Of a DNA stretch of 5,170 nucleotides, positions 2,715 through 5,015 are shown in pieces. The notes under the pieces were generated by a model. That model saw nothing but the letters and a program-made list of their open reading frames with translations. It searched no databases and was not told where the DNA came from. A program made the translations under genes and the position numbers. How positions within the stretch are numbered: position 1 is the stretch's first letter; the number at the start of each line of letters is the position of its first letter. The stretch is from positions 1 through 5,170 of the IMG/VR virus record IMGVR_UViG_2778261420_000002, one strand, 5' to 3'. Source of the stretch: a virus. Lineage: Duplodnaviria > Heunggongvirae > Uroviricota > Caudoviricetes.

Positions 2715-2972
2715 ATGCGTACAACCCAACAATTCAGCATTACATTAACTAACGAGATGGCTGACATGGTGCGCGCCCGTGTGGCTTCCGGTGCCTATGC
2801 TTCAGAAAGCGAGGTCATTCGTGAAGGGCTTCGCGCACTGAATGAGCGCGATAAAGCAATCGAAGCGTGGTTAACGCATTCAGCCGCCCCCTCCCTGGAT
2901 TCAATCCGCAAAAACCCGAACAACGGACGCTCCATTTCACAGGTTCGCGCTGCGATTCGATCCGGGAAGTAA
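2715..2972 (+). CDS. parD: Type II antitoxin, ParD-like ribbon-helix-helix (CopG/Arc/MetJ fold) protein
   Basis: 85-aa product MRTTQQFSITLTNEMADMVRARVASGAYASESEVIREGLRALNERDKAIEAWL... shows the N-terminal beta-strand plus two helices typical of ParD/RHH antitoxins. SD GAGG lies 6 nt upstream. Stop is 5 nt before the toxin ATG. The ORF-track start at 2652 is a TTG and was rejected. Confidence 0.85.
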   Translation: MRTTQQFSITLTNEMADMVRARVASGAYASESEVIREGLRALNERDKAIEAWLTHSAAPSLDSIRKNPNNGRSISQVRAAIRSGK

Positions 2973-2977
2973 TCTGC

Positions 2978-3277
2978 ATGACATATGAAGTCATCATTAC
3001 TCCTGAGGCCGAACAGCAGATAATCAACCTGCACAGATACATAACGGAGAAAGCAGGAAGCGTCATTGCTGACAATTATGCCAATGCGCTTCTTGATTAT
3101 CTTGATGGGTTTTCTACATTCCCGCATCGGGGCAATAAACGCGATGATATTCGCCAGGGGATGCGGGTAACTCATTTCCGCCACAGAACGATTATTGCTT
3201 TTGCCGTTGATGGCAGAAAAGTCTTTATTGTCGGTATCTATCATGGTGGGCAAAGTTATGAAACCGATTTCTTATAA
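2978..3277 (+). CDS. parE: Type II toxin, ParE/RelE superfamily
   Basis: 99-aa product MTYEVIITPEAEQQIINLHRYITEKAGSVIADNYANALLDYLDGFSTFPHRGNKRDDIRQGMRVTHFRHRTIIAFAVDGRKVFIVGIYHGGQSYETDFL matches ParE-family size and pattern (ITPEAE...Y, F.V....V.I..I.H). Immediately follows the antitoxin gene and is followed by a terminator. Confidence 0.85.
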   Translation: MTYEVIITPEAEQQIINLHRYITEKAGSVIADNYANALLDYLDGFSTFPHRGNKRDDIRQGMRVTHFRHRTIIAFAVDGRKVFIVGIYHGGQSYETDFL

Positions 3278-3314
3278 ACTTTTACCCACATCATTCCGGT
3301 GTTAGAATAAACCG

Positions 3315-3338
3315 TCCGCCCCCTCTCTTACTGGCGGA
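3315..3338 (-). terminator. Hairpin, possible weak minus-strand terminator (nin-region type)
   Basis: 6-bp stem TCCGCC/GGCGGA (3315..3320 and 3333..3338) with a 12-nt loop. On the minus strand it is followed by CGGTTTATTC. Weaker than the adjacent hairpin. Confidence 0.3.
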
Positions 3339-3359
3339 TTCGTAGGCTATATAAATCAA

Positions 3360-3394
3360 AGATCCCGGCTCATGTTTGTGTCGGGATCTTTTTT
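3360..3394 (+). terminator. Rho-independent terminator ending the parDE-like operon; potentially bidirectional
   Basis: 8-bp stem AGATCCCG/CGGGATCT (3360..3367 and 3382..3389), 14-nt loop, then TTTTTT (3389..3394). On the minus strand the same hairpin is followed by TTGATTTA, so it may also attenuate the convergent phage transcript. Confidence 0.65.
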
Positions 3395-3401
3395 CGGCGA
3401 T

Positions 3402-3485
3402 TTATCCCCAGCGGCAAATCGAATACACCACCAGCGCAACCGCCATTGCAGTTCCTACCGTTGTGAATGCTTCAGGCCAGCTCAT
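3402..3485 (-). CDS. Small hydrophobic peptide, 27 aa (MSWPEAFTTVGTAMAVALVVYSICRWG), predicted single transmembrane helix
   Basis: Not in the ORF track (too short). ATG at 3485 overlaps the upstream gene's stop (ATGA). GGAGG lies 7 nt upstream of the ATG. Hydrophobic core TTVGTAMAVALVVYSI. TAA stop at 3402..3404 is followed at once by the terminator hairpin. Confidence 0.45.
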   Translation of the reverse strand: MSWPEAFTTVGTAMAVALVVYSICRWG

Positions 3486-3745
3486 TGCCTCGCCTCCAGT
3501 CTCCATACCGCCTGACCAATCCGGCTGGCATGGGTATCTTTGGATACTTTTCCGTCTTTAGCCATCTCTATAAGAATTTTGCGCAAATCTGCCGAACGCC
3601 ATTCTTCATCAGGAAATTCCTTCTCCATTGCCAACCGCAGATTCCAGGTTGCTATCGTGAATGGATATTCACCACCGAGAGCTTTCTCTTGTAGGGCAGC
3701 ACGGGAACGCATCACCTGCAAAACCTTCTCTTTTACATCCATCAT
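3482..3745 (-). CDS. Hypothetical phage protein, 87 aa (MMDVKEKVLQVMRSRAALQEKALGGEYPFTIATWNLRLAMEKEFPDEEWRSADLRKILIEMAKDGKVSKDTHASRIGQAVWRLEARQ)
   Basis: The listed 111-aa ORF has an N-terminal extension. The ATG at 3745 is preceded by AGGAGG with a 4-nt spacer and overlaps (ATGA) the stop of the out-of-frame DUF551 tail, so 3745 is the likely start. Family not recognised. Confidence 0.65.
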   Translation of the reverse strand: MMDVKEKVLQVMRSRAALQEKALGGEYPFTIATWNLRLAMEKEFPDEEWRSADLRKILIEMAKDGKVSKDTHASRIGQAVWRLEARQ

Positions 3746-3864
3746 TTCGCCTCCTGCGGCGGTTCTGGTAGCGGCATCCAGTGTGATGGAATCCACGACG
3801 CACCAGGAATTATCCAACCATCATTAGCATCAGGATGTCCCGGTATGTAAGTCGCCCACTTCAT
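3742..3864 (-). pseudogene. Out-of-frame C-terminal remnant of the DUF551 domain (…WATYIPGHPDANDGWIIPGASWIPSHWMPLPEPPQEAK)
   Basis: Translating the minus strand in the frame offset by one from the 3861..4469 ORF gives a 40-codon stretch ending SHWMPLPEPP, the characteristic C-terminal motif of DUF551 proteins. It ends in a TGA that overlaps the ATG of the next gene. Together with the WISCSERMPDSKTAVLV start of the domain in the upstream frame, this indicates a frameshift in an ancestral single gene. Confidence 0.5.
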
Positions 3865-4469
3865 TCGCAGTCACCTTTCCCGTCAAACTCCCTGGCAACA
3901 AGAACAGCTGTTTTGCTATCCGGCATTCGCTCACTACAGCTTATCCAATCATCCGGAGTTGCCGGGGAGCTGGTTGACGAATTCTTATTTTTCCGAAAGT
4001 TTCCGGCCTGAAACATAGCGGCGCGGTGACACCAGATAATCCAGCCAATCGCCATATCCCATGCCATGTATTCACTACCGCCATTTTTTACCCTGCGGCG
4101 ATCTACAGAATCCCCGAAATGCTTCTCCATAAATAACTCATAGGCAGCCCGTTCATCCGGCACCACCAGCATTGGCGGCGTGGCGTATAGCTTACGGGTC
4201 TGAACACCTGCCTCCTGGCATTTCTCTTCCTCAACAAATCTTTCGAAAGCATATTCCCCGCAATCTTCCCATTCTCCCCATTCATCATATTCTGCATCCC
4301 ACTGGCGATACTGATATGCCACTGGCTCTGCTTCCAGCGATGCCAATACAATTTTGAATAACTCGCCCTCTACTCGCGCCATCCCTGAATTGGGGTGGCA
4401 TTTCGTAATCGCTATTTTTAATTTGGCTTCTTCGATTAATTGTTCTTTTGTTAATTCAGTCATTTTCAT
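3861..4469 (-). CDS. Phage protein with C-terminal DUF551-like domain, apparently truncated by a frameshift
   Basis: 202-aa ORF; ATG at 4469 (MKMTELTKEQ...). The C-terminal WISCSERMPDSKTAVLVAREFDGKGDCE matches the start of a DUF551 domain but stops early; the rest of the domain is in another frame (3742..3864). The N-terminal roughly 160 aa is acidic and Trp-rich. Confidence 0.65.
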   Translation of the reverse strand: MKMTELTKEQLIEEAKLKIAITKCHPNSGMARVEGELFKIVLASLEAEPVAYQYRQWDAEYDEWGEWEDCGEYAFERFVEEEKCQEAGVQTRKLYATPPMLVVPDERAAYELFMEKHFGDSVDRRRVKNGGSEYMAWDMAIGWIIWCHRAAMFQAGNFRKNKNSSTSSPATPDDWISCSERMPDSKTAVLVAREFDGKGDCE

Positions 4470-4559
4470 TACCGCCCTTTCAGGCGGCCTCCTGATGTTC
4501 TGAGGGTGCAGAAATCCCTCCGGTTAAGGATTAAATTTTATTTGCTGTGCTAAATTTAA
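4470..4559 (-). promoter_or_regulatory. Structured intergenic region: two short hairpins and an 8-bp AT-rich inverted repeat
   Basis: Inverted repeat TTAAATTT (4531..4538) / AAATTTAA (4552..4559) with a 13-nt spacer. Hairpin CCGCC/GGCGG (4472..4476 and 4483..4487) lies between an AGGAGG (complement of 4488..4493) and the ATG at 4469. A second hairpin GAGGG/CCCTC is at about 4503..4521. Function not determined. Confidence 0.25.
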
Positions 4560-5015
4560 TTATTCAGTTTTTATTCCTGCTCTCAAAACAGCCTCTGCCA
4601 TTCTGATATCCGGATTTTCTGAAATCATCTTTTCCGGCGAGTCGCAATCACCACCACATTCAGTTATGCGTTCATGACCAAAACGAATTGTGGTTTTGTG
4701 CGCATTAATCATTTGTGTAAGCGCGTCTGTCAATTCTGCAATGCGTTTGTCTTTAACTTCCAGCTCTTTCAGTAAAGCCAGTACGTCAGGATCGCTAACA
4801 TCAACGACGGTTACGCGCGATTTCAGGTAATGTTCATCCGCAAAAGTTCGACCAGTTTTAAAATATCCATCATCCCCCTCACATGTGCAGGCATACACAA
4901 TATGCGTTCTGGGAAATATGCGCTGTATCGACATTTCATCGCCACAAACAGGACATTCCGGCACCTGAATTGGTGAATAACGTTCACGTAATGCCTGGTA
5001 ATTAGTCTTGCACAC
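4560..5015 (-). CDS. Hypothetical phage protein with N-terminal zinc-ribbon-like Cys motif and central coiled-coil-like segment (possibly Ead/Ea22-like)
   Basis: 151-aa ORF. CPVCG...CTC Cys cluster near the N-terminus, heptad-like LALLKELEVKDKRIAELTDALTQMI, C-terminal ECGGDCD. GTG start at 5015 is preceded by GGAGA with a 6-nt spacer and overlaps the upstream ORF by 14 nt. First in-frame ATG is at codon 28, which would remove half the Cys motif. Confidence 0.65.
   Translation of the reverse strand: MCKTNYQALRERYSPIQVPECPVCGDEMSIQRIFPRTHIVYACTCEGDDGYFKTGRTFADEHYLKSRVTVVDVSDPDVLALLKELEVKDKRIAELTDALTQMINAHKTTIRFGHERITECGGDCDSPEKMISENPDIRMAEAVLRAGIKTE

Follow-up and report, generated by a model that had tools for sequence, protein, structure and literature searches.

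A single-base deletion divides a DUF551 gene between two reading frames in a Rac-like lambdoid prophage of Escherichia coli

A gene for a protein with a C-terminal DUF551 domain, located in the early region of an E. coli prophage of the Rac-like lambdoid type, is almost certainly a frameshift pseudogene, split into two open reading frames (ORFs) by the loss of a single G. The gene lies on the minus strand of the stretch of viral DNA analysed here (5,170 nucleotides, hereafter the window). Its 5′ part is an ORF of 202 amino acids (aa) that runs into a premature TGA, and its 3′ part is an ORF of 40 aa in another frame, followed by the gene eaa. The features of the locus, in the direction of reading, are listed below.

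3861 to 4469, minus strand: 5′ fragment, the 202-aa ORF, comprising the N-terminal module (phrog_660 / phrog_5117), a linker rich in Ser, Thr and Pro, and the opening third of DUF551; ends ...REFDGKGDCE (...VLVAREFDGKGDCE) at a premature TGA
3876 to 3947, minus strand: N-terminal part of DUF551, residues 175-198 of the 202-aa ORF
3871 to 3873, minus strand: TGA that closes the frame of the 40-aa ORF on its upstream side, from the codon listing
3867 to 3868, minus strand: site of the 1-bp deletion, from the DNA alignment with strain AST19, the codon listing and counts of the junction patterns
3742 to 3864, minus strand: 3′ fragment, the 40-aa ORF MKWATYIPGHPDANDGWIIPGASWIPSHWMPLPEPPQEAK followed by a stop codon, holding the C-terminal two thirds of DUF551
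3482 to 3745, minus strand: downstream gene eaa, 87 aa, phrog_2814

The two ORFs carry complementary parts of one domain. In a search with the PF04448 profile (68 positions, gathering score 22 bits), residues 175-198 of the 202-aa ORF matched positions 2-24 (E 5.2e-7, 30.9 bits), and residues 2-37 of the 40-aa ORF matched positions 30-68 (E 4.4e-7, 31.1 bits). Since both matches exceed the cut-off, they represent halves of one domain in different frames rather than chance similarities. The intact 240-aa homologue of AST19, which also scores above the gathering threshold (71.5 bits), covers positions 2-68 without interruption (E 1.1e-19). A complete DUF551 domain (positions about 1-68) in one polypeptide was found in neither of the window ORFs, between whose two frames it is divided. 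These matches bear out the proposal of an earlier sequence-only reading of this DNA that a DUF551 gene is split by a frameshift. The two ORFs overlap in an ATGA (3864-3861), in which the stop codon of the long ORF and the ATG of the short one share bases (raw sequence ...GGT GAC TGC GAA TGA). The shifted frame had been described as running for 40 codons; this holds from the ATG onward, although the frame is in fact open for 42 codons, counted from after the TGA at 3873-3871. At its far end the TGA of the 40-aa ORF (3744-3742) overlaps the ATG of eaa (3745-3743), as had been noticed from the sequence, and in this overlap the stop/start junction of the intact gene is preserved.

Alignment with the DNA of AST19 locates the lesion. 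The earlier reading had placed a single-base indel near 3861-3870 and suggested that intact DUF551 homologues would position it; within that range, what the window lacks is a single G from the GG of a TGG (Trp) codon, at 3868/3867 (deleted site GACTGCGAATGA, undeleted GACTGGCGA). Where the intact allele reads GAC TGG CGA ATG AAG, the window reads GAC TGC GAA TGA, and the peptide G D W R M K W A T Y is replaced by G D C E and a stop. A four-way DNA alignment of the loci from strains B7A, TD225-C4, 700481 and AST19 contains only two indels inside the aligned block. One is at the junction, where AST19 has an extra G (GGTGACTGGCGAATGAAG versus GGTGACT-GCGAATGAAG), and the other is an additional A of AST19 in a run of As where the gene begins. 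Over 801 nt the intact AST19 allele is 98.4% identical to the window, so that a near-identical intact allele differs by an indel that is not a multiple of three. The 123 bases 3′ of the lesion are identical in the window and the intact allele, which argues that the event is recent. Furthermore, at the protein level an intact product (P0008) is identical to a truncated one (P0005) as far as the junction.

The A-run polymorphism (window 4464-4467, minus strand; L002 around 3766-3770) bears on the start of the gene. The window has ATG AAAA TG and AST19 has ATG AAAAA TG. Thus the first ATG is in frame in the window (MKMTEL..., 202 aa) and out of frame in AST19 (MTEL..., 240 aa). Because only the second ATG is usable in AST19, that codon (4463) is probably the true start of the gene, and a start there would give the 5′ fragment 200 aa rather than 202. 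In the window, the segment 4458-4492 (minus strand) contains a strong AGGAGG about 18-23 nt upstream of the ATGs at 4469 and 4463. A stable hairpin, GCCGCCT-GAAA-GGGCGGT, lies between the AGGAGG and these ATGs; the 46-nt fold has a free energy of -14.7 kcal/mol (z -3.7, with 0 of 200 shuffles as good). This hairpin might shorten the distance between the Shine-Dalgarno (SD) sequence and the start codon; alternatively, it might belong to the ead/Ea22-like gene upstream, as a structure at which that transcript ends or is processed. An Rfam scan of the whole window gave no match, and a promoter and terminator scan of 3200-4700 gave no more than chance.

How the deletion is distributed was assessed in related strains, as the earlier reading had proposed. 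At 80% or more of the 801-nt query, the gene occurs in 4 of 5,426 complete E. coli genomes. Three carry the deletion (B7A at 100% identity, TD225-C4 at 99.8%, 700481 at 99.5%) and one, AST19, is intact and annotated as encoding a single 240-aa DUF551 protein. The product of the 202-aa ORF is matched exactly by AIF60171.1 of E. coli B7A. The DUF551 module by itself (219 nt) is far more widespread, with 633 complete genomes containing it at a coverage of 80% or more, both on chromosomes and on phage-like plasmids. Among the best 60 E. coli records for this module, 57 are one base longer than the query, and the base-for-base matches are B7A, TD225-C4 and 700481 only. All six annotated DUF551 coding sequences (CDSs) with this module at the C-terminus read GDWRMKWATY...HWMPLPEPPQE in one frame; four of them are complete proteins (196, 237, 240 and 293 aa) that differ in their N-terminal parts, and the other two are short stand-alone ORFs of 61-64 aa. 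A pattern scan for both forms of the junction recovered 13 IMG/VR contigs, 11 intact and 2 deleted, as well as one metagenome contig, which is intact. Over all fetched loci, the 16 intact copies lie in about nine upstream contexts and are all single-frame, and all 12 deleted copies begin MKMTELTKEQLIEEAKLKIAITKCH. The deletion is confined to one N-terminal allele.

The sequence-only reading was open to two objections: that homologues might naturally end where the window ORF does, or that the shifted-frame peptide might be unrelated to the C-terminus of DUF551. Neither applies, as homologues continue through the tail quoted above and the shifted-frame peptide aligns with the domain's C-terminal positions (30-68). 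Indeed, when homologues ending ...GDCE were sought as a natural short form, only the same allele with the same deletion was found.

Taken together, these observations suggest the following history. The ancestral protein was about 240 aa long and consisted of an N-terminal module, followed by a linker and by DUF551 at the C-terminus. The TGG at 3868/3867 then lost one G, so that translation now continues to ...GDCE and meets a TGA three codons on. The protein is thereby shortened by 40 residues and deprived of about two thirds of DUF551 (profile positions 25-68), and the remaining 40 codons persist as a small out-of-frame ORF. The mutation occurred once, on one allele lineage, and has been inherited and spread by recombination within a group of E. 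coli that come mostly from human stool. The deletion leaves both the linker and the N-terminal module (phrog_660 / phrog_5117, residues 1-150) intact. We infer that the function of DUF551 has been lost and that the change reflects neutral decay of an accessory prophage gene.

A real deletion need not abolish all function. The 202-aa protein might retain the activity of its N-terminal module, which is untouched through residue 150, while the 40-aa peptide, made by termination-reinitiation at the ATGA, may complement the truncated domain; we consider this very unlikely. The arrangement that would be needed is present, with the stop/start overlap at 3864-3861 and an SD-like AAGGTG at 3877-3872, 7 nt upstream of the ATG, so the 40-aa ORF could be translated in this way and the locus is perhaps not fully dead. 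DUF551 modules are also annotated elsewhere as stand-alone ORFs of 61-64 aa. Moreover, the deleted allele persists on several backgrounds: in a collection of 15 billion proteins, about 26 contigs encode truncated 200/202-aa forms, which represent at least four amino-acid backgrounds, and about 33 encode intact 240/242-aa forms. Within its 90% cluster, the deleted allele almost equals the intact one in frequency, and it is thus at least not strongly deleterious. However, both the start codon and the SD-like element are ancestral codons (K-G-D...M), and nothing in them has evolved for reinitiation; the ATG that overlaps the new stop is an accident of the ancestral ...W R M K W.... The interruption lies within the Pfam domain rather than between domains, and the downstream DNA is the same as in the intact allele, so that selection has had no time to leave a trace. 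The gene also occurs in differently truncated forms (P0013, P0014), as would be expected of decay. A similarly low probability attaches to the related idea of a naturally split DUF551 protein, kept in enterotoxigenic-type E. coli, whose 40-aa fragment would complement non-covalently or act alone.

The sequence-only reading had also allowed for a sequencing or assembly error, in which case the genome would truly read TGG and the gene would be intact. At 5170 bp the window is one of the short pieces into which a draft assembly falls, and single-base indels are a common type of error, yet this explanation is less likely still. The exact deleted junction is present in the complete B7A genome (CP035812) and in TD225-C4, which are complete genomes from one project, in 700481 from another project, and in the older B7A draft (AAJT02000114). 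It is also found in the window's own assembly (GCA_002521845.1, NORX01000084.1), in two IMG/VR contigs and in three independently assembled Logan assemblies of separate sequencing runs (SRR9418137, ERR10017006, ERR10017336). Of the loci fetched, nine thus reproduce the deletion, and they come from at least seven assemblies or sequencing runs; the two IMG/VR contigs are additional to these. The exact 202-aa product is encoded in CP035812, AAJT02000114, NORX01000084 and the three Logan assemblies. The carriers differ from one another by single-nucleotide polymorphisms (SNPs) and in their neighbouring genes, and the sequence context is a GG doublet with no long homopolymer. The same deletion in so many independent assemblies argues for a real mutation; the lesion is a single genuine deletion, which arose recently and has been inherited. 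Of the options raised by the earlier reading, that of a real pseudogene is thus the one that has held, and that of an error has fallen.

Recoding, by a programmed -1 ribosomal frameshift or otherwise, to give a full-length DUF551 protein from both ORFs appears very unlikely, the least probable of the explanations considered here, and it had already been rated below the others before this analysis. The ORFs overlap, with the second in the -1 frame, and a G GGA AAG heptamer lies just upstream (about 3883-3875), but the zero frame reads it out of phase, as GGG AAA G, and a slip there would end at once (R-E-R-stop) at the -1 frame TGA at 3873-3871. Because this TGA closes the -1 frame upstream, a shift would be possible only within GAC TGC GAA (3872-3864), a stretch without an X XXY YYZ motif and in which none of the three tRNAs re-pairs one base back. 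The codon listing shows no in-phase slippery heptamer in the region where both frames are open (3872-3864). The candidate stimulatory RNA structure in the 96 nt from the junction (3875-3780) is not unusual, its minimum free energy of -25.6 kcal/mol having a z of -0.22 against shuffles. The split is not conserved either, every other allele being in a single frame, as are 16 of 16 copies with other N-terminal alleles or modules. Recoding was rejected on the lack of a slippery site in the permitted 9-nt stretch and the unremarkable structure downstream; the sequence has no place for a productive frameshift.

Genes ending in DUF551 seem to be broken often. The truncated forms P0013 and P0014 belong to the window's own allele and break at different points, and genes carrying the same DUF551 module are independently disrupted in strain STEC316 (L006, 691-1548) and on a plasmid of WCHEC4533 (L007, 701-1390). 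In these two, the NCBI annotation pipeline (PGAP) lists several pseudogene fragments and a stand-alone DUF551 ORF of 61-64 aa starting MPDSK. These other truncations fit ordinary decay of accessory prophage genes.

In a comparison of loci L005, L006, L009 and L016-L029 with window positions 3742-3950, the same C-terminal DUF551 module, at 90-99% DNA identity, was found on at least seven unrelated N-terminal modules, in products of 121 to about 299 aa. The N-terminal modules switch in the Ser/Thr/Pro-rich linker, right before ...DDWISCSERMPD. The DUF551 fusions thus clearly exemplify the shuffling of domains in the early region of lambdoid elements. DUF551 has been described as a portable domain, whose bearers include YfdS, a variant of Ea22 encoded by Stx phages and further mosaic proteins of phages (PMC10834534; PMC4776307). 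For YfdS, literature cited in these two papers reports phenotypes in prophage induction and in sensitivity to H2O2. A sequence search for a solved structure of the intact protein returned none.

The gene order of the window is a DUF1133/antiterminator-Q-like gene, RusA, DUF968, ParD/ParE (on the other strand), eaa, the DUF551 gene, an ead/Ea22-like gene and DUF4406. In B7A the same block runs on into ydaS/ydaT, racR and ydfC, which identifies the region as the early, or nin-type, region of a Rac-like lambdoid prophage. Upstream of the deleted allele, an ead/Ea22-like gene is present in the window (4560-5015, minus strand, 151 aa) and likewise in TD225-C4 and 700481; in B7A its position is taken by DUF4752 (91 aa; L010, 2620-2895). 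Since the upstream gene differs among carriers, either the deleted allele was moved by recombination or the neighbour was replaced after the deletion. The ParD antitoxin and ParE toxin pair (window 2715-3277, plus strand), between eaa and DUF968-RusA, resembles an inserted moron; in related prophages a toxin of the death-on-curing (Doc) family takes its place.

The disruption is already flagged in public annotation. In B7A, TD225-C4 and 700481, RefSeq records a pseudogene ('missing C-terminus') followed by the 40-aa WP_077763265.1, a 'DUF551 domain-containing protein', and the B7A sequence that RefSeq/PGAP flags as a pseudogene is identical to the window's. For annotation, the point is that the 202-aa and 40-aa ORFs are one disrupted gene and not two, half of which RefSeq has done already. 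More broadly, the locus is an example of accessory-gene decay in resident prophages, and a single lesion of this kind can mark the lineage of a prophage allele that has since been recombined into different neighbourhoods. It is an ordinary finding and raises no new question about DUF551.

Compared with known systems, the window shares with the -1 frameshift sites of the lambda G/GT tail-assembly chaperone and of dnaX two overlapping ORFs of which the second is in the -1 frame, but it differs from them in having no in-phase slippery heptamer, stimulatory structure or conserved split. Among DUF551 proteins (PF04448 / IPR007539; YfdS of CPS-53, Ea22 V2 of Stx phages), the window gene, once repaired, would likewise have a full-length C-terminal DUF551 domain. 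As in other lambdoid representatives, it lies in a mosaic early region, here beside eaa and an ead/Ea22-like gene, and the domain is joined to many N-terminal modules; the window copy differs in being frameshifted after profile position 24, so that no single polypeptide has the complete domain. The window gene also resembles the PGAP-flagged frameshift pseudogenes of decaying prophages: it shows a 1-bp indel relative to a near-identical intact allele, RefSeq labels it 'incomplete; missing C-terminus', and its gene family includes other independent truncations. There is no material difference from such pseudogenes; the only peculiarity of the window is that the ATG of the downstream fragment overlaps the new stop codon, and hence the fragment is called as a separate 40-aa CDS.
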